From: Planctomycetota bacterium
GTDB taxonomy: Bacteria; Planctomycetota; PLA2
Length of the DNA: 47,680 nt
NCBI GenBank assembly: GCA_039182715.1
Contig: JBCDBY010000002.1
Location: 1-47,680, forward strand
Direction: 5' to 3'
Shown here in pieces: positions 11,415 to 27,404 of the stretch. Positions within the stretch are counted from its first letter, which is position 1, and each line of letters begins with the position of its first letter. Under the pieces are notes generated by a model. The model ran no database searches and had not been told where the DNA came from. It saw nothing but the letters and a program-made list of their open reading frames with translations. A program made the position numbers and the translations under genes.

Positions 11415-11783
11415 CTATCCGCAGTCGGGGCAAGTGCCGTAGAGGATGATCTCGTGTTCCTCGACCTGAAAGCCGCGCGGTGCGAGGTCATCAAGCGAGC
11501 CGGGGCAGCCGGGGAGGTCGTAGACGCGGTCGCAGCTTCGACAGTGGAAGTGGTGGTGGTGCTCCTTGTCGGCCAGCTCGTATCGGCTCGCCTCGCCCGG
11601 CAGTTCCACCTCGGTCAGCCAACCCTCTTCCAGCAGCGAACGGATCGCCCGGTAGACCGTCGCTTCACCGAGGCTCGGGACGGTCGCCTGCGCGGCCTCG
11701 AGGATCTCGGCCGGGCTGAGCGGGCGGCCGGCTTCGCGCAGGGCCGCCTGGATCGCGTCGCGCTGTCGCGTGCGTCGTTGCAT
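11415..11783 (-). CDS. Fur-family metalloregulator (possibly Zur-like)
   Basis: TRQRDAI, LGEATVYR, HHHHFHCRSC, YGTCPDC; coupled to the ZIP stop codon. Confidence 0.92.
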   Translation of the reverse strand: MQRRTRQRDAIQAALREAGRPLSPAEILEAAQATVPSLGEATVYRAIRSLLEEGWLTEVELPGEASRYELADKEHHHHFHCRSCDRVYDLPGCPGSLDDLAPRGFQVEEHEIILYGTCPDCG

Positions 11784-12619
11784 CACTTTCCTCCCGTCAT
11801 GCGCTCGACGAGCGGGCTCGTGCGCTGGCCCTCGTGAGGATGCATCGCATCGATCGCGAACGCGAACGCCAGACCCACCAGAAGGGCAACCGTGAGCTTG
11901 AGCCGATCGTGATCGTGGAACTGGATTTCCGGAAGCAGGTCGGCGAGCGCGATGCAAAGGAACAACCCCGCCGCGAAGCAGAGCGCCGCACCGACGGTTG
12001 CATCGCCGGCATCGCGCATCCCGAACGCGAAGAGCGTCGCGCCGATCGGGACGGTCACCGCGTAGAGCAGATTGACGAGCGCGCGGGTCCGGACGGACCA
12101 GCCGCCGGCCGCCATCACCGAGGAGATCGAAAGGCTGTCGAGCGGCTTGTGGGCCAGTACCGCGATGAAGGTCGCGATGCCGAAGAACATCGAGGAGTCG
12201 GCGAAGCGCGCGTCCGCGGTGACCGCCGCCGCCAGCGCGATGCCGTCGAGTAGCGAGTGGATCGTGAGGCCGGCGAGGACGCCGAACCCGCTCGCCCTGT
12301 GGCCGTGGCCGTGCGGCGCACCGTCGCAGTCGGTGCCCGCCTCCCCGTGCGAGTGCACGTGGAAGACGCGAATCAGCAGGAACATCCCGAGAATGCCGCC
12401 CGCCATCCAGTAGCCGCCGTCGTGGAAAGAGCGCAACTTGGCGGAGCCGTGCGGGAGCATGTGGAAGAGCGCCACGCCTAGCATGAGCCCCGAAACGAAG
12501 CTCATGATCACCTGCATGCGCGTGTGCGTCAGCTTCCAGCGCGACGGCAGCCATCCACCCGTGAGGGAGGCGCCCGCGATGATCAGGCAATAGAGTGCAA
12601 GCGTGCCGGCGGGCGTCAT
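11783..12619 (-). CDS. ZIP-family divalent metal transporter
   Basis: His-rich loop HVHSH..HGHGH, LTIHSLLDG, AHKPLDS, ALADLLPE. Confidence 0.92.
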   Translation of the reverse strand: MTPAGTLALYCLIIAGASLTGGWLPSRWKLTHTRMQVIMSFVSGLMLGVALFHMLPHGSAKLRSFHDGGYWMAGGILGMFLLIRVFHVHSHGEAGTDCDGAPHGHGHRASGFGVLAGLTIHSLLDGIALAAAVTADARFADSSMFFGIATFIAVLAHKPLDSLSISSVMAAGGWSVRTRALVNLLYAVTVPIGATLFAFGMRDAGDATVGAALCFAAGLFLCIALADLLPEIQFHDHDRLKLTVALLVGLAFAFAIDAMHPHEGQRTSPLVERMTGGK

Positions 12620-13563: not shown

Positions 13564-15777
13564 ATGAAGCGAATCTTTGCACTCTGCCTGCTCATGCCGC
13601 TCGTCATCCACGCGCAGGAGGAGGAGGCGGACCCGCTCGGCTGGCCGCGGCTCATCGAGAAGGACGGCCTCGAGCTGGTCGCCTACCAGCCGCAGATCGA
13701 GGAGTGGAAGGACAACAAGCGCGTCGTCATGCAGATGGCGCTGGAGGTCACGCCCAAGGGCAAGGAGCAGTCCCATGTGGCGGCGGTCCGCCTGCGTGCC
13801 CGCACCAAGGTCGACTTCTCCTCCCGCACCGTCGAGATCTCCAAGGCGACCATCGCCTCGCTCGAGTTCCCCGACGCCGATCCGCAGCAGACCGCGAAGT
13901 TCCGCAAGTTCGTCCGCGGGCTGCTCGACAAGCGCACCTGGAACACCTCGCTCGACCGCATGCTGGCCAACGCCAAGCGCGCGGGGCAGACGCAGCGGGA
14001 GGTGCGCGTCAACACCGAGCCGCCGCCGATCTACTACAGCGAGAAGCACGCGATCCTCATCCAGTACCTGGGCGAGGTCGACTTCCAGCCCATCCCCGGC
14101 ACCAAGCTGCGCTTCGTGACCAACACCAACTGGGACATCGTGCGCCCCGACGGATCGACCGAGGCGTTCCTGCAGTACGACGAGGGCTGGCTCAAGACGA
14201 ACAACCCGATGGCGGGACCGTGGCAGCCGGCCGGCGAGCTGCCGCCCGACCTGCGGATGCTGCCCAACGACGACAGCTGGGCGGCGTTGCGCTCGCACGT
14301 GCCCGGCAAGCCGATCCAGGAGGTGCCGCAGGTGTTCGTCTCGCTGCGCCCGGCCGAGATGATCCTCGTCGACGGCGAGCGCATGATGGAGTCGATCGAG
14401 GGCACGCAGCTCTCCTACGTCGCCAACACCGACGCCGACCTCTTTCACCACAAGGGCACGGACCGGTGGTACTTCCTCGTCGCCGGCCGCTGGTTCGAAT
14501 CGCGCGAACTCAAGAATCGCGGCAGCTGGGCGTGGGCCGACAAGCTGCCGGAGGACTTCGCGAAGATCCCCGAGGACCACGAGATGGCCGACGTGCGGGC
14601 TTCGGTCCCCGACACGCCGGAATCGGATGAAGCGGTCCTGCAGGCGTCGATTCCCCGCATGGCGACGGTGCAGCGAGAGGGCACGACGATCGAGGTCGTC
14701 TACGATGGCGACCCGGCGTTCGAGGAGATCGAGGGCACCGGCGGCGTCTTCTTCGCCATCAACACGCCGAGCGACGTCTTCCGGTTCGACAACCAGTACT
14801 ACTGCTGCGCGAACGGCGTCTGGTTCATCGCCACGTCGCCCAACGGCCCGTGGGTCGTCTGCATCAAGGTGCCGGAGCAGGTCTACTCGATTCCCGGCGA
14901 CCACCCGAAGCACAACGTCACCTACGTGAACGTCTACGAGAGCAACGACGACGAGGTGGTCTACGGATACACCGGCGGCTACTACGGCTGCTACTACTGG
15001 CGCCGCCGCGTCTGGTTCGGCTACGGCCACTGGTGGGGCTTCCGCCGCGGTGTTCGTTTCGCGCGCTGGATGCACTACCGGTACCGCCCGGTGCACTACG
15101 CGTACGGGATGGGCGCCCGCTACAACGCCTACAAGGGCACCTTCCTGCGCAACGCGCGCGCCTACGGGCCGTACGGCGGCGTCGGGCGCGGCGCCGCGTG
15201 GAATCCGCGGACCAAGCAGTACGTGCGGGGCAAGGCCGCGTACGGCGCGCGCCAGGGTCGCATCGCGACGACCGCATACTCGCCCGCCGCGCGCAACTAC
15301 GTGCGGAACCGGAAGGCGACCAGCATCTACGGATCGTGGGGAAAGAAGGTCACCGCGCGCGACAACCAGTGGGCCGCCGCCGAGCGCACGCAGGCGCAGG
15401 CGCGCGCCGCGCAGCGCCGGCAGGCGCAGGCGGCCGCGCAGGCGCAGCAGCGCGCGCGGATGCAGCCCGCCGCGAAGCGGACCAACAACATGTACGTCGG
15501 TCGCGATGGCCGGGTCTATCGGCACGGCCAGAACGGCTGGCAGGTCAAGGGCAAGGGCGGCTGGCAGAAGTTCGACCACACCCGGAAGCAGGCGCGGTCC
15601 CAAAAAAAGGTCACCGGGCAGGACGTGCACCGCGACCTGAGGCGGCAGCAGTATTCCCGTTCCCGGGCACAAACGCGCTCGCGCCACTACAGCCGCGGTC
15701 GCGCCAGCTCGGGCCGCCGCAGTTCGGGCTACCGCCGCGGCGGAGGGGGGCGTCGAGGAGGTGGCGGTCGTCGCTGA
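13564..15777 (+). CDS. Large secreted hypothetical protein with Tyr/Gly-rich segment and Arg/Gly-rich disordered tail
   Basis: RBS GGAGG, signal peptide, GWPR..YQPQ, internally repeated FVTNTNWD/YVANTDAD/FAINTPSD units, C-terminal RRGGGGRRGGGGRR. Confidence 0.8.
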   Translation: MKRIFALCLLMPLVIHAQEEEADPLGWPRLIEKDGLELVAYQPQIEEWKDNKRVVMQMALEVTPKGKEQSHVAAVRLRARTKVDFSSRTVEISKATIASLEFPDADPQQTAKFRKFVRGLLDKRTWNTSLDRMLANAKRAGQTQREVRVNTEPPPIYYSEKHAILIQYLGEVDFQPIPGTKLRFVTNTNWDIVRPDGSTEAFLQYDEGWLKTNNPMAGPWQPAGELPPDLRMLPNDDSWAALRSHVPGKPIQEVPQVFVSLRPAEMILVDGERMMESIEGTQLSYVANTDADLFHHKGTDRWYFLVAGRWFESRELKNRGSWAWADKLPEDFAKIPEDHEMADVRASVPDTPESDEAVLQASIPRMATVQREGTTIEVVYDGDPAFEEIEGTGGVFFAINTPSDVFRFDNQYYCCANGVWFIATSPNGPWVVCIKVPEQVYSIPGDHPKHNVTYVNVYESNDDEVVYGYTGGYYGCYYWRRRVWFGYGHWWGFRRGVRFARWMHYRYRPVHYAYGMGARYNAYKGTFLRNARAYGPYGGVGRGAAWNPRTKQYVRGKAAYGARQGRIATTAYSPAARNYVRNRKATSIYGSWGKKVTARDNQWAAAERTQAQARAAQRRQAQAAAQAQQRARMQPAAKRTNNMYVGRDGRVYRHGQNGWQVKGKGGWQKFDHTRKQARSQKKVTGQDVHRDLRRQQYSRSRAQTRSRHYSRGRASSGRRSSGYRRGGGGRRGGGGRR

Positions 15778-15843: not shown

Positions 15844-16398
15844 ATGCGTCTTCTGCTTCTCTCGCTTCTCGCGCTCGCGGCGTGCAACGGTGGTGTGCAC
15901 CGCGAAGGCGACCGCATGTTCGTCGCGCGCGGCCTGTTCACCGCGCATCCGATCAAGGGCAATGCCATCGCCTGGAACGGCGAGCGCGACAACGAGTACT
16001 TCGGCGCCGGCGTCGGCAACTACTGGTTCGTCCGCGATCGCGTCGCGCTCGGCGTGCTCGCGTCGGTGTTCAACGTCCAGTACGGCGGCGACAACATCCT
16101 CGTCGGCCAGGTCGAGCTCGCGCACCGCTGGTACCTGTTCGAGCACGAGAAGTTCGCCTACTTCTGGGACTCGCACGCGGGGTTCCTCTATGGCGAGGAC
16201 AACTTCCCCGAGGGCGCGACGCGTCACGAGGCGACGTTCGCCTTCGGTCCCGGCATGGAGATTCCGCTCAGCGAGCGCAACCGGCTGTTGGCGGGCATCC
16301 AGTTCCACCACGCGTCCAATGCGCGGGGCCGTGCGGCCGACGACAACCCGAGTCAGAACGATCTGCGGATCTGGCTGGCTTGGGGCTTCAAGTGGTAG
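15844..16398 (+). CDS. PagL-like (lipid A 3-O-deacylase/acyloxyacyl hydrolase) beta-barrel
   Basis: FHHASNA (HxSN), amphipathic strands, C-terminal WGFKW, N-terminal LAAC. Confidence 0.7.
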   Translation: MRLLLLSLLALAACNGGVHREGDRMFVARGLFTAHPIKGNAIAWNGERDNEYFGAGVGNYWFVRDRVALGVLASVFNVQYGGDNILVGQVELAHRWYLFEHEKFAYFWDSHAGFLYGEDNFPEGATRHEATFAFGPGMEIPLSERNRLLAGIQFHHASNARGRAADDNPSQNDLRIWLAWGFKW

Positions 16399-17641
16399 GC
16401 GCGCGCAGGCTGGCGAGGCCCGCCGCGACGACGGCCGCGAAGAGGGACCACGCGCCCGCCTGAACCCACGCCTCCACGTGCTGCGACATGCCCCACGCCA
16501 GCGCGGGGACTCCGGCAGTCCAGAGCACGAAGCAGGTGATCTGCAGCGCCCGCACCGGCCCCGTGGACGGCGACGCCGGCATCTCCTCGTGGTCGCCGTC
16601 GGCCCCGTCGCGCAACCAGCCGTACATCGGCAACAGGCGCATCGACACCCCGAGAATCGCCTGCCCGAGGAAGCCGAGCAGCACGATCACGCCGTAGGCC
16701 AGCATGCGGTCGGTGAGCAGGGTCTCGGTAAACACGAGCGAGAGGCCGATGCCGATCGCCACCGCCAGGTAGAGCAGCGCCTGCATGGCGTGCAGCATGC
16801 CGATGTCGGGGCGTCGCCGCGCGGGCGGCGCCGGCAGCCGGTTGCGCAGCATGCCGATGACGACTCCGAGGAAGTAGAGCAGGCCGAAGGCGATCGGAAT
16901 CGACGCCCAACGCGCCAGGGAGGGCGCGAAGAGCCACGCGAGCACGGCGCCGATCACGCCGACCTGGATCGGGATGAGGATCCGGAAGGCGTGCCGTTCG
17001 TCCGGTGGCCGCGCGGGCAGGGCGATCGGCAGCATGCGCAGACCGACGCCGATCAGCATGAGCGACGCGAACCCGACCAGCCCGAGGTGCGCGTGGCCGA
17101 AGACGCTCTGGTAGTGCGTCCCCGGCAGAATCGGATAGGTCTTGTTGATCGCCAGCAGCAGCCCGAGGAACGCGGTCCCGGTCAGGTTGCTCCACGCGAT
17201 GGTGATGATCGCCTTGGTGCCGCGCTCGATGGGTGACTCCTTGAGCGCGCGTCGGACACGCCGCAGCAGCCACTCGAAGCAGAGCAGCAGCATGACGCCG
17301 GCGTAGGCGATGCCGGAGTACTCCTCGATCCAGAAGTGCGCCGCCACGCCGCTTGCGCCGATCGCGACAAAGGCGCAGACCCACGCGTCGCCGCGTCCGG
17401 CCGGGAATTCCATGCGCAGCGCGAGCGGGGCCGCGAGGTAGAACGCCCCGATGATCGAGTGCACGATCCAGCCGAGCGTGACCAGATGCACCGCGAAAAC
17501 CGTGTACGGCGTCAGGAAAAAGCCGCTCGCCTTCCCGGGCTCCAGCGCCACCGCCGCGAGCGCGAGCAGCAGCGCCGCGTAGGCCAGTCCGAAGTAGACC
17601 AGCGGCAGGCGGCGGGGAGGCGGACGTCGGCCGGCGGGCAC
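16388..17641 (-). CDS. Polytopic membrane protein with intramembrane His motifs (NnrS/HCO-subunit-I-like appearance)
   Basis: About 12 TM helices; AVHLVTLGW, GHAHLGLVGF, LGVSMRLLP. Confidence 0.65.
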   Translation of the reverse strand: MPAGRRPPPRRLPLVYFGLAYAALLLALAAVALEPGKASGFFLTPYTVFAVHLVTLGWIVHSIIGAFYLAAPLALRMEFPAGRGDAWVCAFVAIGASGVAAHFWIEEYSGIAYAGVMLLLCFEWLLRRVRRALKESPIERGTKAIITIAWSNLTGTAFLGLLLAINKTYPILPGTHYQSVFGHAHLGLVGFASLMLIGVGLRMLPIALPARPPDERHAFRILIPIQVGVIGAVLAWLFAPSLARWASIPIAFGLLYFLGVVIGMLRNRLPAPPARRRPDIGMLHAMQALLYLAVAIGIGLSLVFTETLLTDRMLAYGVIVLLGFLGQAILGVSMRLLPMYGWLRDGADGDHEEMPASPSTGPVRALQITCFVLWTAGVPALAWGMSQHVEAWVQAGAWSLFAAVVAAGLASLRAPTT

Positions 17642-17786: not shown

Positions 17787-18614
17787 GTGACGGGCAACGG
17801 GAACAGCTACCACTCCATTTTCATCCCTTCCGACTTCAGCGACGCGAGCGAGCGCGCGCTGGCGCACGCGTTGGCCATGGCGGTGGTCTGGCAGTCGGAG
17901 CTCTGCCTGCTGCATGCCGGCGGCGACGCGTTCTCGGACGAGGAGTGGGAGAACGCGCCCTCGGTGCGCGGCATGCTCGCCGAATGGGGGTTCCTCGAGC
18001 GCAACGCGACGCGCCAGGCGATCTTCGACGAGCTGCGGGTGCGCGTGCGCAAGGTCGAGTCGCGCGGCCGTCCGCCGCTGGACGCGACCCTCGAATTCCT
18101 GCGCCGTTCGCCGACCGAACTGATCGTCCTGGCGACCGGCGCGCGTCGCGGGCTGCTCCGCATGATGCACCGATCCGTCGCCGAGGCAATCGGGCGACAG
18201 GTGGCGGTGCCGGTTCTCTACGTGCCGGCGTCGTCCCGGGGATTCATCGCGACGCAGGCCGGGACCAGTTCCCTGCGTCGCGTCACGGTCGCCGTGCAAC
18301 CGGGGGACGACGTCGACGAAGCGTGGGCGGCCGTGGCGCGGCTGCAGCCGCTGACCGCGGGTGCACGACTGGAGGCGGAGTGGCTGCGACTCGGCGATGA
18401 TGCGCCGGAACTCCGTGCGCCCCAATTCGAGCGGATCGCGTGGACTGCGCGGCGCGCGTGCGAAAGGCGCCCGCTGCGGGCGATCCTCGAGTCGTCCCCC
18501 GACCTGGTCGTCATCACCGCGCACCCCGCGCCCGGAACCGACGCGAGCACCGCCGAAGATTTGATTCGACGCGGCGCTTGCCCCGTCCTTTCCTTGCCTG
18601 CGCCCCGCCAATAG
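17787..18614 (+). CDS. Universal stress protein (tandem Usp domains)
   Basis: IFIPSDFSDASERALAHA, LIVLAT, SVAEAI..VPVL, CPVL. Confidence 0.88.
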   Translation: MTGNGNSYHSIFIPSDFSDASERALAHALAMAVVWQSELCLLHAGGDAFSDEEWENAPSVRGMLAEWGFLERNATRQAIFDELRVRVRKVESRGRPPLDATLEFLRRSPTELIVLATGARRGLLRMMHRSVAEAIGRQVAVPVLYVPASSRGFIATQAGTSSLRRVTVAVQPGDDVDEAWAAVARLQPLTAGARLEAEWLRLGDDAPELRAPQFERIAWTARRACERRPLRAILESSPDLVVITAHPAPGTDASTAEDLIRRGACPVLSLPAPRQ

Positions 18615-18724: not shown

Positions 18725-19534
18725 ATGAACGTGCTTCGAATTGCTCTCTGTCTCGCCCTGTCCTGCTTCGTGATCGCCTGCGGCGGTTCCGAAGAGCCGA
18801 AGAAGACCGCCCCCGCGCCCGCCGCGGACGACGGTGGTTCCGAGGAGGAGTCGTTCGGTCGTCAGACCTACTCCGCCGACAAGGGCAGCGCCACCGTGTC
18901 CGGCACCGTGAAGTGGAGCGGCAAGGCGCCCAACCGTCGCCCGCTCGACATGGGCTCCGACAAGTTCTGCGAGAAGTGCTACGAGGGCCAGGAGGCCCCG
19001 CGCTCGATGTCCGCCGTCGTTGGTGCCAACGGCGAGTTCGCGAACATCTTCGTCTATGTCAAGAACAGCGGCGACATGAAGAACTGGAAGTTCCCGAAGG
19101 GTTCGTCCACGCGCGTGATCGACCAGGTCAAGTGCATGTACACGCCGTACCTGATCGGCGTGCAGACCGGCGACACGCTCGAGATCCGCAACAGCGACCA
19201 GACGCTGCACAACATCCACGCCACGAAGGATGGCAACGACTGGTTCAACAAGGCGCAGCCGGCCGGCTCCGACGCCTACACGACGACCGTCACCGAGGCG
19301 GGCATGTTCACGCTCAAGTGCGACGTGCACAGCTGGATGAAGTCGTTCATCTGCGTCGTCGACAACCCCTTCTTCGCCGTGACCGGCGAGGACGGCAAGT
19401 TCTCCATCCCGAGCCTGCCCGCCGGCAGCTACACGCTCGTCGCCTGGGACAGCCGCAAGGGCAAGGAGATGACCAAGGACTTCACCGTCTCCGACGGTGG
19501 CTCCGCCACGGTCGATTTCGAGTTCAGCAAATAG
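18725..19534 (+). CDS. Lipoprotein with cupredoxin-like and carboxypeptidase-regulatory-like domains
   Basis: RBS AGGAGA, lipobox VIAC, DQVKCMYTP, NSDQTLHNIH, KCDVHSWM, PFFAVTGEDGKF. Confidence 0.82.
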   Translation: MNVLRIALCLALSCFVIACGGSEEPKKTAPAPAADDGGSEEESFGRQTYSADKGSATVSGTVKWSGKAPNRRPLDMGSDKFCEKCYEGQEAPRSMSAVVGANGEFANIFVYVKNSGDMKNWKFPKGSSTRVIDQVKCMYTPYLIGVQTGDTLEIRNSDQTLHNIHATKDGNDWFNKAQPAGSDAYTTTVTEAGMFTLKCDVHSWMKSFICVVDNPFFAVTGEDGKFSIPSLPAGSYTLVAWDSRKGKEMTKDFTVSDGGSATVDFEFSK

Positions 19535-19541
19535 GAGCCTG

Positions 19542-20354
19542 ATGGAACCGCGAAGCCGCCCCCGCATCATCCTCGGTCTGGTCGCCTTCTTCGGCCTGAT
19601 CACCCTCTTCACCGTCGGGCTGTTCATGCTGCCCTGGCGGTCCGAGGTCGCCTCCGATGAGGGGGGCGGCATCGACGCGGTCATCACCTATCTGCTCGTG
19701 GCGACGGGCGCCCTCGTGGTGCTCGGGCACTACGTGCTCATCCGCTTCCTCTGGAACGGCAACGGCGAGAAGGGGTACACCCGGCCGACGCCCAAGGTGG
19801 AGTGGATGTGGGGCATCATCCCCGTCGTCATCATGATGATCCTCTCCGAGGCGGGCGTGCTGGTCGTCGGCGCGCCCACCTGGAAGAAGCTCTACGTCGA
19901 TCGCGCCGAGAACCCGGTGCAGATCGAGGTCGTCGGCAAGCAGTTCCAGTGGTACGTGCGCTACCCCGGCAAGGACGGCGTGTACGGCGACTACGACTTC
20001 GAGGAGATCGACGGCGCCGACAATCCGCTCGGCCTGCTCGACGACAGCGACGCCGCGGTCGACGACATCGTCACCTCCAAGCTGCGGCTGCCGCTGGGTC
20101 GACCGGTGCAGATCCGCATGCGCACGCACGACGTCATCCACAGCTTCTTCGTGCCGGACTTCCGCGTGAAGCAGGATCTCATTCCGGGCTTCCCGACCGA
20201 GATCCGTTTCACGCCGACGAAGCTGGGCGAGTACGAACTCGCCTGCTCCGAGCTGTGCGGCCTGGCGCACTACCGCATGAAGGCTCCCGTGCTGGTGATG
20301 GAGCCCGAGGCGTTCGACAAGTGGTTGGCCGCGCAGCGCGGTTACTTCGAGTAG
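19542..20354 (+). CDS. coxB: Cytochrome c oxidase subunit II
   Basis: Two TM helices, QFQWYVRYPG, CuA ligands DVIHSF and CSELCGLAHYRM; no fused cytochrome c. Confidence 0.95.
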   Translation: MEPRSRPRIILGLVAFFGLITLFTVGLFMLPWRSEVASDEGGGIDAVITYLLVATGALVVLGHYVLIRFLWNGNGEKGYTRPTPKVEWMWGIIPVVIMMILSEAGVLVVGAPTWKKLYVDRAENPVQIEVVGKQFQWYVRYPGKDGVYGDYDFEEIDGADNPLGLLDDSDAAVDDIVTSKLRLPLGRPVQIRMRTHDVIHSFFVPDFRVKQDLIPGFPTEIRFTPTKLGEYELACSELCGLAHYRMKAPVLVMEPEAFDKWLAAQRGYFE

Positions 20355-20366
20355 GAAGGCAACGGC

Positions 20367-22094
20367 ATGCACGAACCCATGCACGAGGCGCCGCACGCGG
20401 CCCCGACCACCTTCATCGGCAAGTACATCTTCAGCTTCGACCACAAGGTCATCGGCATTCAGTACCTCCTCACGGCGATCCTCATGGCCGTCGTGGGCGG
20501 GCTGTTGTCGCTGATGATCCGCCTGCAGCTCCAGCACCCCGAGATGCAGCTGCTCGGCCCGCCCGAGGCCTACCTCGCCTGGGTCACCATGCACGGGACC
20601 ATCATGGTCTTCTTCGTGGTGTCGCTGGCGATCAGCGGGTTCGCGAACTTCCTGATCCCACTGCAGCTCGGCGCGCGCGACATGGCCTACCCGATGCTCA
20701 ACATGTTGAGCTACTGGACCATCGTTCCGTCGGTGCTGCTGATGCTCGCCTCGTTCTTCGTGCCGGGCGGCGCGGCGGCCGCGGGCTGGACCATGTATCC
20801 GCCGCTTTCGGCGGTCCCCGAGGCGGTGCCCGGCTCCGGCCTCGGCACGACGTTCTGGCTGCTCGGCATGGCGCTCTTCATCGCGTCGTTCACGATGGGC
20901 GGCCTCAACTTCCTGACCACGATCGTCAACTGCCGCACCAAGGGCATGACGATGTGGCGCATGCCCATCGCGGTCTGGGGCTTCTTCATCGCGACGGTGC
21001 TCGGCCTGCTGGCGTTCCCGCCGCTGACGGCCGCCGCGCTGATGCTGCTCTTCGATCGCCACGGCGGCACGAGCTTCTTCGTCACCGAGATGGTGGTCAA
21101 CGACCAGGTGCTCCTGCCGGGCGCCGAGGGCACGCCGCTGCTCTTCCAGCACCTCTTCTGGTTCCTCGGCCACCCCGAGGTCTACGTGCTGGTGCTGCCG
21201 TGCGTGCTGATGACCATGGAGATCATCCCGGTCTTCACGCGCCGCCCGATGTTCGGCTACCGCCCGAGCGTCTGGGCGCTCTTCGTGATCGGGTTCCTGA
21301 GCATGATCGTGTGGGGTCACCACATGTTCGTGACCGGCATGAACCCGTACATCGGCGAGTACTTCTCGATCGCGACGGTGATCATCACGGCGCCCTTCGC
21401 GATCCTCGGCGTGAACCTGCTCGCCAGCCTCTGGCGCGCGAAGATCAAGCCCGCGGTGCCGATGCTCTTCGCGCTCGCGGTCATCTCCGCGGTCGGCTTC
21501 GGCGGCTTCGGCGGCCTGTTCCTGGGAACGGTGGTCTCCGATATCTACTTCCACGAGACCTACTTCGTGGTCGGCCACTTCCACCTCATGATCGGCACGG
21601 TCACGTTGCTGAGCCTCTTCGGCGCCCTCTACTTCTGGTACCCGAAGATGTTCGGCCGCCGCATGAGCGAGAAGCTCGGCCGGATCCACTTCTGGTTCAC
21701 CGCGGTGCCGATGATCACGATCTTCATCCTGATGCACATGCAGGGTCTCGGCGGCATGCTGCGCCGCACCTACGACCCCGGCGCCTACGACTACAACGCC
21801 GGCGCCAACATGATGCTGCGCTTCCCGATCACGGCGATGGCGTTCATCCTCTTCCTGGCGCAGTTCGTCTTCTTCTGGAACTTCTTCCGCAGCCTCAAGA
21901 ACGGGGAAGAGGTCGGCGAGAACCCGTGGGACGCGACCACGCTGGAGTGGACGACGCCCTCGCCCGCCGGCCACGGCAACTGGCCGGGCGCGCTGCCCGT
22001 CGTCGAGCACGACCCGTACGAGTACGACGGCGACGACTTCACGCCGCAGGGCAGGGTGGTCGAGACGGCTTCGGAGGAGGGCGGCAACGCGTGA
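20367..22094 (+). CDS. coxA: Cytochrome c oxidase subunit I (A1-type signature)
   Basis: TMHGTIM, GWTMYPPLS, WFLGHPEVY, VWGHHMF, VVGHFH, GMLRR. Confidence 0.97.
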   Translation: MHEPMHEAPHAAPTTFIGKYIFSFDHKVIGIQYLLTAILMAVVGGLLSLMIRLQLQHPEMQLLGPPEAYLAWVTMHGTIMVFFVVSLAISGFANFLIPLQLGARDMAYPMLNMLSYWTIVPSVLLMLASFFVPGGAAAAGWTMYPPLSAVPEAVPGSGLGTTFWLLGMALFIASFTMGGLNFLTTIVNCRTKGMTMWRMPIAVWGFFIATVLGLLAFPPLTAAALMLLFDRHGGTSFFVTEMVVNDQVLLPGAEGTPLLFQHLFWFLGHPEVYVLVLPCVLMTMEIIPVFTRRPMFGYRPSVWALFVIGFLSMIVWGHHMFVTGMNPYIGEYFSIATVIITAPFAILGVNLLASLWRAKIKPAVPMLFALAVISAVGFGGFGGLFLGTVVSDIYFHETYFVVGHFHLMIGTVTLLSLFGALYFWYPKMFGRRMSEKLGRIHFWFTAVPMITIFILMHMQGLGGMLRRTYDPGAYDYNAGANMMLRFPITAMAFILFLAQFVFFWNFFRSLKNGEEVGENPWDATTLEWTTPSPAGHGNWPGALPVVEHDPYEYDGDDFTPQGRVVETASEEGGNA

Positions 22095-22597
22095 GCCTCT
22101 CCGTCCAGCAGCGGGCCGCGTGCAACCGCACGCTCACCATGGCGGTCATCGTGACGGTCGTCATGCTCTTCACGGGGTTCGCCGCGGCGTACCTCGAACG
22201 TTCGCATACCACGGACGTGTGGCAGCGCATCGAGCTGCCGTCCGTTCTCGTCTGGAACACCGGCGTGCTGGTGCTCAGCAGCGTCGTGCTCGAGTGGGCG
22301 CGGCGTCGCGGTCGCACCGACGGCATCGCCTGGGCGACCGGACTGGGCGTGCTGTTCCTCGCGGGCCAGATCTGGTCCTGGGTCGAGCTGCGCGAGCAGG
22401 GGGTGATGGTCGCCTCCCACGCCCACGCGTCCTTCTTCTACATGTTGAGCGGCGTCCATGCGCTGCACCTGATCGGAGGGCTTTGCGCCCTCTGGGCCGC
22501 GCGCCGGAAGCGCCGCATCCTTCCGTTCGCCGCGGGTTTCTGGCACGTGATGGCCGGCGTCTGGATCTACGTCCTCGTCGTGCTGACCGTTCTTTGA
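22091..22597 (+). CDS. Cytochrome c oxidase subunit III-like protein (short)
   Basis: GTGA overlap with coxA; [33 protein letters not shown]. Confidence 0.85.
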
Positions 22598-22619: not shown

Positions 22620-23252
22620 ATGAGTCTGACCGCACAGACGTCGTTCACGCCGGAGCGCTGGCAGGGAGGCCTCAGCCCCTACAACCAGACCTGGCAGAAG
22701 CTGATGATGTGGATGTTCATCGTCGGCGATGCGCTGCTCTTCGGCGGCTTTCTCGCGGCCTACGGCTTCACCCGCCACGGCGCGGGCGACGCGTGGCCGG
22801 TGGTGCTGGGCGAAGGCGGCCTCTTCAGCACCGGCCTGCTCACGACGATGACCTTCGTGCTCATCACGAGCAGCGCCTTCATGGCGTGCGCGGTGTCCGC
22901 CGCGAAGGCAAACAACCGCGCCGAGACGGTGAAATGGACCTTCCTCACGCTGGCCGGCGGCGTGGTCTTCCTCGGCATGCAGGTCTACGAGTGGAGCCAC
23001 TTCATCGGGCAGGGCGCGCGCCCGTGGTTCACGCCGGGCGGCGCGGATCCGGGGTTCGCCGCCTACTTCTTCCTGATCACCGGCTTCCACGGCACGCACG
23101 TGCTCATCGGGCTCATCGTGCTGCTGGTCACCGCGCTCAACGCGAAGCGCCGTCCGGAGCTCAATCCGAACGGCGTCGAGGTCGCGGGCCTCTACTGGCA
23201 CTTCGTCGACCTCGTCTGGGTCTTCATCTTCGGCTGCTTCTACCTGCTCTAA
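22620..23252 (+). CDS. coxC: Cytochrome c oxidase subunit III
   Basis: [38 protein letters not shown]. Confidence 0.93.
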
Positions 23253-23254
23253 CC

Positions 23255-23539
23255 ATGGACGCCACGATGGACGCCACCGCAACCGCTTCCGCCCCGAACT
23301 ACAAGAAGATCTGGAAGGCGTGGGCCGCGCTGCTGGTCATCACGGTCGCCATGGTCTTCCTGCCGCACAACCTCTGGACGATCATGATCGGCATCCTGTT
23401 CAAGGTCGTGATCATCGCCGGCATCTTCATGGACCTGAAGGACGAGACGCTTGACTTCGTGATGATCGTCGGGTTCAACGTGCTCTTCTTCGCCATCCTG
23501 CTCTACGCGCTGATGGTGCCCGACGGGCTGGTGATGTGA
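23255..23539 (+). CDS. Cytochrome c oxidase subunit IV family protein
   Basis: YKKIW..LLVIT, KVVIIAGIFMDLK, three TM helices, operon position. Confidence 0.8.
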   Translation: MDATMDATATASAPNYKKIWKAWAALLVITVAMVFLPHNLWTIMIGILFKVVIIAGIFMDLKDETLDFVMIVGFNVLFFAILLYALMVPDGLVM

Positions 23540-23953: not shown

Positions 23954-24099
23954 ATGCGTGCGACGCAACGCGCGCTGCCTGCAGGGACGGCGCGCGTCAC
24001 GCGTGCTTCCAGCCAGTTCCAGCGCTGGCTTCGATTCCCTCGAATCTCGTATGGCGGGAGAATTGAACCCGGCTCGGTCATCCCGCTAACTTGAGGCGA

Positions 24100-24573
24100 A
24101 TGGCGACGCGACGACGAATCATCGGTGTCCTGGGGGGCATGGGAGACGACGAACGGGCGCGCGCGGTGGGGGGCGCGATCGCCGAGGCGGGCTGCCTGCT
24201 CGCGTGCGGAGGTGGGCTCGGCGTGATGGAGTCGGCGGCCCGCGGGGCTCGGGAGGCGGGCGGCGACGTCATCGGCATTCTGCCGGGCACCGATCCGGAG
24301 TGGGCGAACGAGTACGTCAACATCCCCATCGCGACCGGCCTCGGCGAAGCGCGCAACTGCGTGCTCGCGACCTGCTCCGACGCGGTCGTCTGTCTCGGCT
24401 CGGGGCCGGGCACGCTCAGCGAGGTTGCGTTCGCGCTCAAGCTGGGGCGGCCGGTCTACGCGATCCGCTCGGGGTGGGATGGGATTCCGGGGGTCGTGGT
24501 GCTGGCGGATGTCGGGGCGTTGCGGGGGGTGCTGTCGGCGACGAGAGGGGGAGGGGGCGGAGGCGCGGAGTGA
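24100..24573 (+). CDS. TIGR00725 / LOG-like Rossmann-fold protein
   Basis: CGGGLGVMESAARGA, IGILPG, TGLGEARN, GTLSEVAFALK. Confidence 0.88.
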   Translation: MATRRRIIGVLGGMGDDERARAVGGAIAEAGCLLACGGGLGVMESAARGAREAGGDVIGILPGTDPEWANEYVNIPIATGLGEARNCVLATCSDAVVCLGSGPGTLSEVAFALKLGRPVYAIRSGWDGIPGVVVLADVGALRGVLSATRGGGGGGAE

Positions 24574-24941: not shown

Positions 24942-27404
24942 TCACGGCCGGTCGGGAAGCGTCTCCGTCAGGCCCAGCTCCGCGCGCACCAGCTCGCGCG
25001 CGGTCGACCGTGCGCTCATGATCGGCTCCGCGGCGGCGCGCTCGCCCCAGAGGATCTCGAGGCTCGCCGCCCAGGATCGGTGCCGCGCCGTTTCCAGGCC
25101 GCGAGCGACCATCGCGCGCCGCCCCTCCTCGTCGCGATAGATCCTCTCCATGGCGTCCGCGAACGCCTCGGCGCCGGACCGATCCACCACGATGCCCGAC
25201 TCGCGCTCCTGGACGATGCCGCGCGGCCCGCCGGAGCCGGTCACCACGGCGGGGAGCCCGCAGGCGTGCGCCTCGATGATCACGTTGCCCAACGTGTCCG
25301 TGCGCGACGGGAAGACGAACAGATCCGACGAAGCGTACGCTTCGGCCAGCTCGAAGCCGCGCAGGTAGCCGGTGAAGTGCAGGCCGGGCGTCTTGTACTG
25401 CCTCGCCCACGCGGCGCGGCTCGGTCCGTCGCCGACGATCGCCAGGTTCGCCTTCACGCCGCGCTGGTGCAGCAGCTCGAATGCGTCGAGCAGGACCGGC
25501 AGCCCCTTCTCGCGGCTCACGCGGCCGACATAGAGGAAGGTGAACGGGTCGTCGAGTCCGCGCGAGGACCAGAAGTCCGGGCGGCGGCGGCCGGTGTGGA
25601 AGAGCGTCGGGTCGATGCCCGCCGGCAGCACCTTGAGCTTGCGCGCCGCGTAGCCGCGCGTGAGCAGCTGGCGCCGCGAGTGCTCGCTCCGCACGAAGAC
25701 CGTGTCGAGCTGCTTGTAGAACCAGTCCACGTAGCGCTGTGTCGCGGCGGCGACCGCGGTGTCCTCGGTGAGGCGCGCCACGTAGGCGGGGAAGTCGGTG
25801 TGGTAGATGCCGCAGGTCTTGATGCCGGTGGTGTGCGCGGCGGCGAGACCGGTGAGGCCGAGCGGGCCCGGCGTCGAGAGGATCAGCTCCTCGATGTCCT
25901 CGCGCTCGACGTACTCCATGATCTCGAGGAAGGGCGGGAAGGCGAGCGTCTGGTCCTCGTACTCCGGCATCGGGAAGGTGCCGACCGGCGGGAAGTTGAC
26001 CACGCCGTCTTCGCTCGGGTTTTCGGGCAGCGAGGTGATCACGCGCATCGGCAGGCCCGCGTCGCGCGCCTCGTTCGTGAGGCGGCGAATCGTGCGGGCG
26101 ACGCCGTTGACGTCGGTGAACGTGTCGGTCAGCCACGCCTTGCCGCCCTTGCGTGCGGTCGCGCCGCCGATCGCCGGGTAGCGCTCCTCCAGCTCGCGCA
26201 GCAGCGGTTCGTCCTTGTGGTGCGCGTTGAAGGAGGCGAAGTAGGGCGCGATCGAGAGCCCGACCGGCGCCATCGAGGCGATCGTCTGCAGGCTGTCGAT
26301 CAGACGGCCCTCCGTCGCGTAGCGCTGGAAGCGGCGCATGCTCTCGTAGCCGAGCAGGTGGGTGATGCGGCAGGCGATCTCGAAGGTGCGACGGTCCCCG
26401 CGCGCGTCGTGGCCCTTGTCCTCGCCGAACAGGTTCTCGAGCTCGCGCAGCAGGACCTGGTCGGCGCGCCGGCGGCGCAGCATGCGACCGGCCCAGAGCT
26501 TCAGGCGCAGTTTCAGCGACGCGGGCCGGGTCGGCGCGCCCGCGAGCCGCGCGAACATGGCGCTCAACACGCCGGAGCCGCCCTGGAAGCGCGCCGCGTA
26601 GTAGCTGTAGGCGATCGAGCAGAGGCTGCGCGCGAGCTGCAGGCTGCTGCCGCGCGTGCCCGCCATGGCGTGGCGGCCGGCGCGCAGGTGGTCGAGGAAC
26701 TCGTCGACCGTCTCGGCCGGCGGGGTGACCGTATGCGCCGAGGCGACGTAGAGGCCGCTGTGGTCGTCGCTGCCGCCGGTGAGCGACTTCTCCCAGGGTC
26801 TCTCACCGACCGGGGCGATGCCGTGATCCTCGGCGAGGCGCCCGATGTCCTGCTCGGTGAGCTGGTCGAGCAGCGCCTCGAAGACCGCACCGTTGCGGCG
26901 GCCGTGCATGCCGTTGATCCCCTCGAACGTGTTGAAGAGCAGCAGCAGCTTCTCGACGTGGTCGGCCGTGAGCAGATCGTTGACGCGGTAGAGCGGGTGC
27001 GCGACCGACGTCGGGATGTCGTTCTCGATGACGTAGCGGCGGAATTCGTAGATGTCCGAGCGCACCTCCTGGATGTCCCGGAACTGCGCCTCGGTAATGC
27101 CGTTCACGAGGATGTGCACCTTCGCACCGTCCTCGGGGAAGTAGGTGGTCACCTCGTTGGAAATGAAGGTGTCCGGAAGGTGGGCGATCTCCAGCGCGCC
27201 GTCGATGCGGTTGTGGTCGGATATCGTGACGAAGCGCATGCCGCGCTCCTTCGCGGCCCGGTACAGATCCAGCGGCTCGACGAACGACTCCGGCGCCCCG
27301 ATGCGCCGCAGCCACCACTCGCTGGGACGATCCGAGTACTTGGTGTGGATGTGCAGGTCCGCGCGCGCGGGTCCACCTTCGTTGGGAGAGATCATGCCCT
27401 TCAT
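24942..27404 (-). CDS. PHP-domain / GT4 glycosyltransferase fusion
   Basis: DLHIHTKYS, TISDHN, AHP, GGSDDH, then TDTFTDVNGVA, YHTDFP, YVGRVSREKG, FPSRTDTLGNVIIEA. Confidence 0.9.
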   Translation of the reverse strand: MKGMISPNEGGPARADLHIHTKYSDRPSEWWLRRIGAPESFVEPLDLYRAAKERGMRFVTISDHNRIDGALEIAHLPDTFISNEVTTYFPEDGAKVHILVNGITEAQFRDIQEVRSDIYEFRRYVIENDIPTSVAHPLYRVNDLLTADHVEKLLLLFNTFEGINGMHGRRNGAVFEALLDQLTEQDIGRLAEDHGIAPVGERPWEKSLTGGSDDHSGLYVASAHTVTPPAETVDEFLDHLRAGRHAMAGTRGSSLQLARSLCSIAYSYYAARFQGGSGVLSAMFARLAGAPTRPASLKLRLKLWAGRMLRRRRADQVLLRELENLFGEDKGHDARGDRRTFEIACRITHLLGYESMRRFQRYATEGRLIDSLQTIASMAPVGLSIAPYFASFNAHHKDEPLLRELEERYPAIGGATARKGGKAWLTDTFTDVNGVARTIRRLTNEARDAGLPMRVITSLPENPSEDGVVNFPPVGTFPMPEYEDQTLAFPPFLEIMEYVEREDIEELILSTPGPLGLTGLAAAHTTGIKTCGIYHTDFPAYVARLTEDTAVAAATQRYVDWFYKQLDTVFVRSEHSRRQLLTRGYAARKLKVLPAGIDPTLFHTGRRRPDFWSSRGLDDPFTFLYVGRVSREKGLPVLLDAFELLHQRGVKANLAIVGDGPSRAAWARQYKTPGLHFTGYLRGFELAEAYASSDLFVFPSRTDTLGNVIIEAHACGLPAVVTGSGGPRGIVQERESGIVVDRSGAEAFADAMERIYRDEEGRRAMVARGLETARHRSWAASLEILWGERAAAEPIMSARSTARELVRAELGLTETLPDRP

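Follow-up and report, generated by a model that had tools for sequence, protein, structure and literature searches.

The 47,680 nucleotides analysed here (contig JBCDBY010000002.1, positions 1 to 47,680; hereafter the window) stem from a metagenome-assembled genome (MAG) of a Planctomycetota bacterium (GCA_039182715.1), which is 82% complete and distributed over 407 contigs. They carry a cluster of six genes predicted to encode a terminal oxidase, in the order cup, coxII, coxI, small coxIII, coxIII and coxIV (Table 1), and this order is conserved across related loci. The analysis concerns the subunit I, CoxI, a family-A heme-copper oxidase subunit in which helix VIII lacks the lysine of the K channel, and the subunit II, CoxII, which bears an additional glutamate buried in the membrane. 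Residues are also given in R. sphaeroides numbering (Rs), and oxidases without the helix VIII Lys at Rs Lys362 are called K-less. Residues of CoxII are counted from the GTG at position 19497, the true start being likely the ATG at 19542.

Table 1. Features of the oxidase cluster and its residues of interest, with positions in the window.
Feature	Position	Strand	Remark
Universal stress protein gene	17787..18614	+	Adjoins the oxidase cluster
Cup	18725..19534	+	Lipoprotein with plastocyanin-like type-1 copper motif and C-terminal CarboxypepD_reg-like sandwich
CoxII (subunit II)	19497..20354	+	CuA subunit, no cytochrome c domain; Pfam COX2 51.4 bits
CoxII Glu102	19800..19802	+	Canonical K-channel entry Glu (Rs E101-II); same alignment column as the entry Glu in relatives with Lys
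CoxII Glu118	19848..19850	+	Membrane-buried carboxylate with hydrophobic flanks; second transmembrane helix (TM2) about 5 residues longer than usual
CoxI (subunit I)	20367..22094	+	575 amino acids; family-A heme-copper oxidase without canonical K channel
CoxI D channel: Asn94 (GFANF), Asp105 (ARDMA), Asn112 (MLNML)	20646..20702	+	Invariant in 57 clade sequences
CoxI HPEVY: CuB ligand His269, Glu271 (Rs E286), Tyr273 (Rs Y288)	21171..21185	+	Invariant in 57 clade sequences
CoxI Met284	21216..21218	+	Rs Ser299 position
CoxI Thr341 (Rs Ala356)	21387..21389	+	Clade-specific hydroxyl in helix VIII; Thr in 73/73 clade rows
CoxI Phe344 (Rs Thr359), Leu347 (Rs Lys362), Gly348 (Rs 363)	21396..21410	+	
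CoxI Gly377 and Gly382	21495..21512	+	Helix IX; 99-100% of the clade, 0% of Lys-bearing rows
Small CoxIII-like protein	22139..22597	+	152 amino acids; weak CtaE/CyoC matches; COX3 18.1 bits, below cut-off
CoxIII	22620..23252	+	210 amino acids; Pfam COX3 73.6 bits
CoxIV-like small subunit	23255..23539	+	94 amino acids; COX4_pro 20.9 and caa3_sub_IV 21.3 bits, both below cut-off

CoxI scored 441.3 bits against the COX1 fold (Pfam PF00115, cut-off 34.8) and 543.2 bits against the NCBIfam equivalog TIGR02891 (CtaD_CoxA), which is below the cut-off of 670.75. Its closest solved relative is the actinobacterial subunit I 6adq_F (phmmer, E 4.4e-109). CoxII also stays under the equivalog cut-off of its NCBIfam model (CoxB, 135 bits, cut-off 147.7), and the ligands of its CuA site (His215, Cys250, Cys254, His258 and Met261) do not vary among 51 sequences. 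CoxII is present at 75/80 related loci, CoxIII at about 74/80 and a CoxIV homologue at about 49/80; homologues of the small CoxIII-like protein were found in 51-76 of the 80 loci and are located directly 3' of coxI in most of them.

The protein Cup shows a His...Cys-x2-His-x2-Met pattern and a lipobox-like N-terminus. It matched the Pfam profile CarboxypepD_reg with 34.2 bits and Copper-bind with 20.7 bits, slightly less than the cut-off of 21.2, and its match to amicyanin/pseudoazurin was weak. Homologues occur in 29/80 related loci, mostly upstream of coxII. Judged by its motifs, Cup is a probable periplasmic electron carrier, and either this membrane-anchored cupredoxin or a soluble carrier probably donates electrons to the oxidase via CuA. 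Cup was rejected as a marker of K-less enzymes, since one Planctomycetota genome has a Cup homologue directly upstream of the coxII of its canonical A2-type oxidase (L104, G004:C20:157000-168500). That A2 operon shares its contig with the K-less operon, the two being about 9 kb apart.

Active site and proton channels of CoxI

The six His ligands of CoxI (His76, His269, His318, His319, His404 and His406) align with the ligands of solved enzymes and are invariant in 57 sequences of the clade described below, as is Asn350 (Rs Ser365). Tyr273 is located in helix VI four residues past the CuB ligand His269, which by sequence is the cross-link position. An earlier reading made from the letters of the window (the sequence-only reading) had reported the six His, the cross-link Tyr, the Glu of GHPEVY and the D-channel residues, and all of them were confirmed from the DNA. 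The same reading had placed Phe (21396) and Leu (21405) at the Rs Thr359 and Lys362 positions and Met at Rs Ser299. Both the coordinates (codons 21396-21398 for Phe344 and 21405-21407 for Leu347) and the alignments agree: the phmmer alignment of CoxI and 6adq_F is ungapped over helices VI and VIII (PFAIL versus PTGIK, TME versus VSE), and a MAFFT alignment of 176 family-A rows gave the same equivalences for Met284, Phe344 and Leu347. The Rs Ser299 position is mostly Phe within the clade, with some Met, Leu, Ala, Cys, Asn or Ser.

According to Table 2 of PMC3084760, the K channel of family A is formed by Lys354, Thr351 and Ser291 in P. denitrificans numbering. Among the features of the Pereira/Sousa type A1, CoxI possesses those of the D channel, the helix VI Glu and the active site and lacks that of the K channel; the label "A1-type" given by the sequence-only reading thus stands for the D-channel criterion and fails for the K-channel feature. 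The canonical A1 aa3 oxidases (R. sphaeroides, P. denitrificans, mitochondrial and actinobacterial; 6adq, 1m56, 1ar1) share with the window enzyme the 12-helix COX1 fold, the six His, the Glu and Tyr of HPEVY, the D-channel Asn/Asp/Asn, the CuA subunit II and the genes for subunits III and IV. In contrast to them, the window enzyme has Met, Phe and Leu for Ser299, Thr359 and Lys362, Thr for Ala356, extra Gly residues in helices VIII and IX, and a subunit II whose TM2 is about 5 residues longer and contains a buried Glu; its identity to the solved enzymes is just about 40%.

Glu285 (Rs His300 position) was considered as a substitute for the Lys and rejected because Asp or Glu is also found there in the Lys-bearing sisters and in the A2 paralogue of the same genome. 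An insertion of about 12 residues in the loop between helices V and VI is common to the Lys-bearing sisters and therefore not clade-specific. Among the clade-specific or invariant columns of CoxI no new Lys or Arg in a membrane helix was found.

A D channel which is intact beside a K channel closed at mid-height could mean that the enzyme is a D-channel-only oxidase. All chemical and pumped protons would then pass through Glu271, and Glu118 of CoxII and Thr341 of CoxI would serve the packing of the subunit interface. The invariance of the D-channel residues and of Glu271 and the hydrophobic nature of the three mid-channel K positions across the clade speak for this explanation, and part of bioRxiv 10.1101/2020.03.01.968255 proposes the same for the K-less enzymes found in acidophilic iron oxidisers. 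The exchange of Ser/Ile for Phe175/Thr176 near the top of the D channel might in addition retune this channel, yet both residues are also present in the Lys-bearing sisters and thus do not track the loss of Lys.

Distribution and phylogeny of K-less oxidases

A protein search returned 119 close homologues with 60-83% identity, many of them labelled as Planctomycetota MAGs. None of the 118 with a readable helix VIII has Lys at position 347, nearly all reading P-F and one P-S; Lys retained by all close homologues, the pattern that the sequence-only reading had associated with strain-specific decay, was therefore not found. A scan of one genome per species yielded 80 loci, four with Lys (L057, L062, L068 and L077) and 76 without. 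The K-less loci derive from MAGs named as Planctomycetota, Acidobacteriota (Vicinamibacteria, Blastocatellia and others), Gemmatimonadota and Kryptonia, and all 76 keep Asn-Asp-Asn and His-Glu-Tyr.

In a FastTree phylogeny of 176 rows the window is placed inside a clade of 73 rows that comprises K-less rows exclusively (support 100). The same clade was recovered with IQ-TREE under a mixture model (55 rows; Shimodaira-Hasegawa-like approximate likelihood ratio test, SH-aLRT, 99), its sister being the Lys-bearing pair L057/L062 (95), so that the tree check proposed by the sequence-only reading assigns the shared substitutions to one clade. In these unrooted trees, built with no outgroup from the B or C family, the clade branches inside family A, among Lys-bearing rows of both type A1 and type A2 (support 97-100). 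Since the clade is monophyletic and has Lys-bearing sister lineages, the loss of Lys appears to be derived and old. The K-less group of Kryptonia adjoins the Lys-bearing L077/P0121 in the IQ-TREE tree (94); joining it to the main clade was rejected by the approximately unbiased (AU) test with p 0.0015, for a group that was named once the tree had been seen. The Lys state has to change 7-8 times on the tree.

Among 94 full-length representatives (50% identity) nearest to the query, a sample biased to relatives of a K-less enzyme, 60 carry Lys, 10 Gln and 24 another residue. Loss of the Lys is thus recurrent in the sequence space of family A and not singular, and the assertion of the sequence-only reading that the Lys is near-invariant in this family was too strong. 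The ten representatives with Gln at Lys362 (P0170, P0202, P0203, P0226, P0237, P0238, P0246, P0247, P0251 and P0258) mostly comprise 780-870 amino acids, and the D-channel entry residues are non-canonical in most of them. Further family-A-like lineages without the helix VIII Lys are P0122/P0134, P0131/P0151, the P0124 group, the P0135 group and P0149/P0220. In P0149 and P0220 the Glu of HPEVY is replaced by Trp, and in P0131/P0151 and a part of the AHPEVY-type group described below the D-channel residues are missing as well.

The substitutions in CoxI are therefore fixed and define a clade that extends over at least three phyla; they are neither an error nor strain-specific decay. The source genome, as an 82% complete MAG in 407 contigs, might lead one to suspect a degenerating gene or an assembly error, but the probability of this explanation is close to nil. 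The reading frame is intact and has no stops, the catalytic residues are invariant in the clade, and the same residues recur in homologues (60-83% identity) that stem from many independent assemblies. The three K-channel positions (Rs 299, 359 and 362) hold non-canonical residues in all readable close homologues and at 76/80 loci, which bears out the argument of the sequence-only reading that coordinated changes speak against sequencing error. Decay is thus excluded.

The order coxII, coxI, small coxIII-like gene and coxIII is that of operons which we take to be of the coxMNOP type ("type b"), the likeness being one of gene order. It does not explain the loss of the K channel since the Lys-bearing sisters L057, L062 and L108 share it.

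A K-less family-A oxidase in itself has been reported before. Parts of bioRxiv 10.1101/2020.03.01.968255 and PMC8239418 describe K-less COX1 proteins in acidophilic iron oxidisers, some non-acidophiles and archaea, and infer a repeated loss of the K channel among archaeal family-A oxidases. The K-less enzymes of the iron oxidisers (Degli Esposti et al., rus-operon type) are characterised there, in the portions concerned, as A2-type oxidases in which the entry Glu of COX2 (Pd E78) is replaced and COX1 has two extra N-terminal helices. They resemble the window enzyme, in the same portions, in the hydrophobic residue at the Lys position, the conserved D-channel residues and a cup gene preceding COX2, and their variants in soil bacteria in the duplication of COX3. 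Unlike them, the window enzyme has the A1-type Glu (GHPEVY), has kept Glu102 of subunit II (64/70 in the clade) and has no N-terminal extension, the canonical alignment beginning at residue 15-20 of 575.

A further difference is the lack of a c-type cytochrome gene: no cyc2/cyc1-like or other c-type cytochrome motif was found within about 10 kb of the operon, and the window contains just two CXXCH motifs (4619 and 7610, minus strand) in open reading frames of 796 and 726 codons that are distant from it. Parts of the two sources also mention, for Gemmatimonadetes MAGs, rus-like clusters that include a cupredoxin gene and in which COX3 is duplicated, and these may overlap with the K-less clade.

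The B-family oxidases (ba3) possess, as far as parts of PMC3084760 and PMC11214002 describe it, a single K-pathway analogue that is composed of hydroxyl residues and a subunit II Glu and contains no Lys. Its residues Thr, Ser and Tyr at Lys362, Thr359 and Ser299 are not found here, where Leu, Phe and Met stand instead. The residues Ser309, Thr312 and Thr315 of ba3 align with Rs Thr359, Lys362 and Ser365, which are Phe, Leu and Asn in CoxI, and the B family lacks the D channel that is intact in the window enzyme. Thr341 could likewise be dismissed as a B-family feature, because none of these three residues maps to its position, Rs 356, which is Ala in ba3.

The subunit II glutamate and the changes that track the loss of Lys

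Of the changes that accompany the loss of Lys, those in subunit II are the more pronounced. Glu118 is found in 70/70 K-less CoxII proteins with TM2 in the locus and is invariant across the alignment of 51 sequences. The entry residue Glu102 is conserved in 64/70 of the K-less CoxII proteins (the remainder being 4 Gln and 2 Ala), so that Glu118 appears to be the more constrained of the two. The TM2 segment bearing Glu118 is missing from 4/4 Lys-bearing sisters and 5/5 further Lys-bearing enzymes, and an acidic residue in the TM2 core was detected in 0/38 Lys-bearing oxidases of the metagenome loci; altogether, a Glu118-like acidic residue was found in 0/47 Lys-bearing enzymes (4 + 5 + 38). Based on this distribution, Glu118 is a candidate replacement for Lys362. 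A limited search of open-access text did not turn up a description of the K-less clade, the Glu in subunit II or a Ser/Thr rule at Rs 356.

Comparable residues are encoded in other K-less lineages. The separate lineage of Kryptonia has Glu in the Glu118 column and Ser at position 341 of CoxI. A second kind of K-less oxidase with the motif AHPEVY and P-S-V-I-I in helix VIII was detected in two Acidobacteria (L094/L109 in G002, L095/L110 in G003), where it coexists with the enzyme of the main clade and is encoded with coxII downstream of coxI/coxIII; its CoxII (L109/L110) has a second TM2 Glu eight residues past the entry Glu. On the metagenome contigs L112-L114 a K-less CoxI of about 730 amino acids has an N-terminal periplasmic heme-c domain (CXXCH) and one extra helix, and the corresponding CoxII reads L-S-(D/E) near the top of TM2. 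Together with the Planctomycetota/Acidobacteriota/Gemmatimonadota clade these amount to at least four K-less lineages.

Clade-specific columns of CoxI were sought by setting the 73 rows of the clade against 65 rows with Lys. The Rs Ala356 position, occupied by Thr341 in the clade, is Ala in 89% of the Lys-bearing rows. Over all 176 rows, position 341 is Ala or Gly in 65/65 rows with Lys and Ser or Thr in 100/101 rows with neither Lys nor Gln, and it is mixed in the Gln-bearing group. Gly348 is found in 93% of the clade, the Lys-bearing rows having Ile or Val, and the canonical residues at the positions of Gly377 and Gly382 are Thr or hydrophobic.

A model of the CoxI-CoxII complex scored 0.92, the best of three controls scoring 0.00; the mark applied is reached by 58/80 solved complexes and 2/110 mismatched pairs. 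At least 94% of the contacts agreed between runs, and the predicted local distance difference test (pLDDT) of the partner was at least 82. As the two proteins form a textbook pair and were modelled with custom alignments, this pass may reflect likeness to solved oxidases, and the model was used for the list of interface residues alone and not as evidence of binding. In the model, residues 341-343, 345-346, 348-350, 377-378 and 381-382 of CoxI touch CoxII, and residues 116-118 of CoxII touch CoxI, while Phe344 and Leu347 are not among the contacts. This list places Thr341, the Gly residues of the clade and Glu118 at the subunit interface and the positions of the old channel inward. The search for a substitute polar path in a structural model, proposed by the sequence-only reading, thus yielded Glu118 and Thr341 in the modelled interface, as contacts and not as a continuous path.

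Proposed proton path and accessory role of the enzyme

The cluster is best explained as encoding a complete accessory terminal oxidase that is maintained by selection. Subunit II would receive the electrons at its CuA centre, and O2 would be reduced at a normal heme/CuB/Tyr site served by the intact D channel, which leads via Asn94, Asp105 and Asn112 up to Glu271. With the middle of the K pathway (Ser299, Thr359 and Lys362 in Rs) filled by Met284, Phe344 and Leu347, the protons which this pathway supplies for the reduction of the active site would be shifted to a route along the interface of subunits I and II. Their entry would be unchanged (Glu102 of CoxII and Asn350); the buried unpaired Glu118 in the lengthened TM2 would take over from Lys362 as the protonatable relay, Thr341 and Thr337 (Rs Thr352) would pass protons toward Tyr273, and Gly348, Gly377 and Gly382 may give space for a side chain or water.

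Such a displacement to the interface is suggested by the combination of a hydrophobic old K path, the retained Glu102, Asn350, Thr337 and Tyr273, the invariant Glu118, Thr341 and the extra glycines. We give a K pathway that is rerouted along the subunit interface and uses a carboxylate instead of the Lys somewhat less than an even chance (about 0.45). In this proposal, the reduction of O2, proton conduction by Glu118 and the electron donor are inferred.

Along TM2, by helical rise, about 16 residues separate Glu118 from Glu102 below it and about 11 from the periplasmic end above it, a depth that we infer to correspond roughly to the upper K pathway. Part of PMC9687966 gives distances from the C-alpha of Tyr288 of about 19-23 A for the entry Glu and about 13 A for Lys362.

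Several points weigh against the rerouted path. The contact list of the model provides no distance from Glu118 to Thr341, Thr337 or Tyr273, and by helical rise Glu118 could be situated at or above the level of Tyr273 instead of midway. Glu118 could also be structural, bind a lipid or another subunit, or serve the assembly. Phylogenetically independent pairs are few: 4-5 of 6 change in the same way and none in the opposite way (p 0.06-0.125, underpowered). The group of the AU test was chosen post hoc, and a canonical oxidase is always co-encoded, so that the cell could afford a K-less enzyme of slow or specialised activity.

The same residues bear on the D-channel-only oxidase. A buried unpaired carboxylate in a transmembrane helix is costly, yet Glu118 is present in 70/70 proteins, surpasses the entry Glu in conservation and has counterparts in TM2 of independent K-less lineages. 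The lower part of the K path, Glu102 of CoxII and Asn350, has been kept, which would be unexpected for an abandoned path. Furthermore, the R. sphaeroides mutant K362M reportedly does not sustain turnover despite an intact D channel and is said to retain peroxidase-type activity. Taking these points into account, a D-channel-only oxidase seems unlikely, although it is the stronger of the two alternatives that presuppose an intact gene.

If the rerouted path is extended to the other lineages, the residues in TM2 and at position 341 may indicate a second K pathway of family A, in which a TM2 carboxylate of subunit II acts in trans together with Ser or Thr at Rs Ala356 and which would have arisen convergently at each loss of Lys362. 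This generalisation is tentative and we regard it as less probable than the rerouted path in the clade itself.

The K-less oxidase is an accessory enzyme. Two more subunits I are encoded in the source genome, one of the A2 type with the usual Lys in helix VIII and one, more distant, of cbb3-like appearance. A canonical Lys-bearing A2-type CoxI is co-encoded in 6/6 genomes checked (that of the window and five others), being only a contig-end fragment in one of them. In the family of the window, an orthologue with at least 67% identity occurs in 6/10 relatives, and the other four, which are 86-95% complete, have an A2-type match only; among 29 genomes of the neighbouring family no match at E 1e-100 was found. 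Among the sequencing runs listed as containing the sequence none was of RNA, the one strong match being a DNA run which may be the source sample.

This accessory and patchy occurrence (6/6 genomes and 6/10 relatives) would also be compatible with an altered chemistry, in which the enzyme uses another substrate such as H2O2 or NO or acts as a non-pumping electron sink or O2 scavenger. The adjacent universal stress protein gene and the peroxidase-type activity said to remain in the K362M mutant may point in the same direction. Against this, all determinants of four-electron O2 reduction (the three CuB His, the cross-link Tyr and Glu271) have been kept along with the CuA site, no gene of the conserved cluster hints at another substrate, and the NO reductases of the superfamily lack the Tyr cofactor according to part of PMC11214002. 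An altered chemistry is thus without positive support and appears improbable, clearly more so than a D-channel-only enzyme. The sequence-only reading had proposed a D-channel-only enzyme with altered chemistry: the loss of the canonical K residues and the intact D channel hold, the altered chemistry is not supported. Of the three options it had named, namely a peroxidase-like enzyme, another substrate or a rerouted proton path, the evidence favours the last (Glu118, Ser/Thr at 341 and the modelled interface), and nothing was found for a reduction of peroxide or NO.

The requirement for two proton inputs and the role of the K-channel Lys in aa3 oxidases have been studied nearly always by point mutants in three or four model enzymes. 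The K-less clade represents a natural experiment on this question in marine and soil Planctomycetota, Acidobacteriota and Gemmatimonadota, in which the D channel and the active site have been kept and the core of the K channel has been replaced. What makes it interesting is how broadly the clade is distributed, together with two sharply correlated, testable residues for operation without the K-channel Lys, Glu118 of CoxII and Thr341 of CoxI, which are specific and mutable candidates for how the K function is replaced. If the Glu relay proved true, a carboxylate contributed by a different subunit would be able to restore a K pathway, and a sequence rule would be available for annotation. Classifiers that define type A by its K-channel residues will misfile many environmental oxidases.

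No conserved neighbours beyond the six oxidase genes were found in the 80 related loci. Divergent from the cluster, the window encodes a multi-pass membrane protein of 416 amino acids without Pfam family (16388-17641, minus strand). Its nearest ESM Atlas clusters are uncharacterised ones of Acidobacteriota/Gemmatimonadota, one of which has PF00115 on 10% of its members, and homologues beside the oxidase were detected only at L004 (52%) and L070 (35%). Further upstream are located a secreted-looking protein of 737 amino acids without Pfam family and with a long C-terminal tail rich in Arg, Gly and Gln (13564-15777, plus strand) and a metal transporter of the ZIP family (Pfam Zip; 11415-12619, minus strand). 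The open reading frame after the transporter gene has a C-terminal part that, judged by eye, resembles a Fur/Zur-type regulator. Downstream of the cluster, a SLOG cluster-4 protein (24091-24573, plus strand; PF18306, 120 bits) is followed by a protein of 819 amino acids in which a PHP-associated region is fused to a GT4 glycosyltransferase (24942-27404, minus strand).

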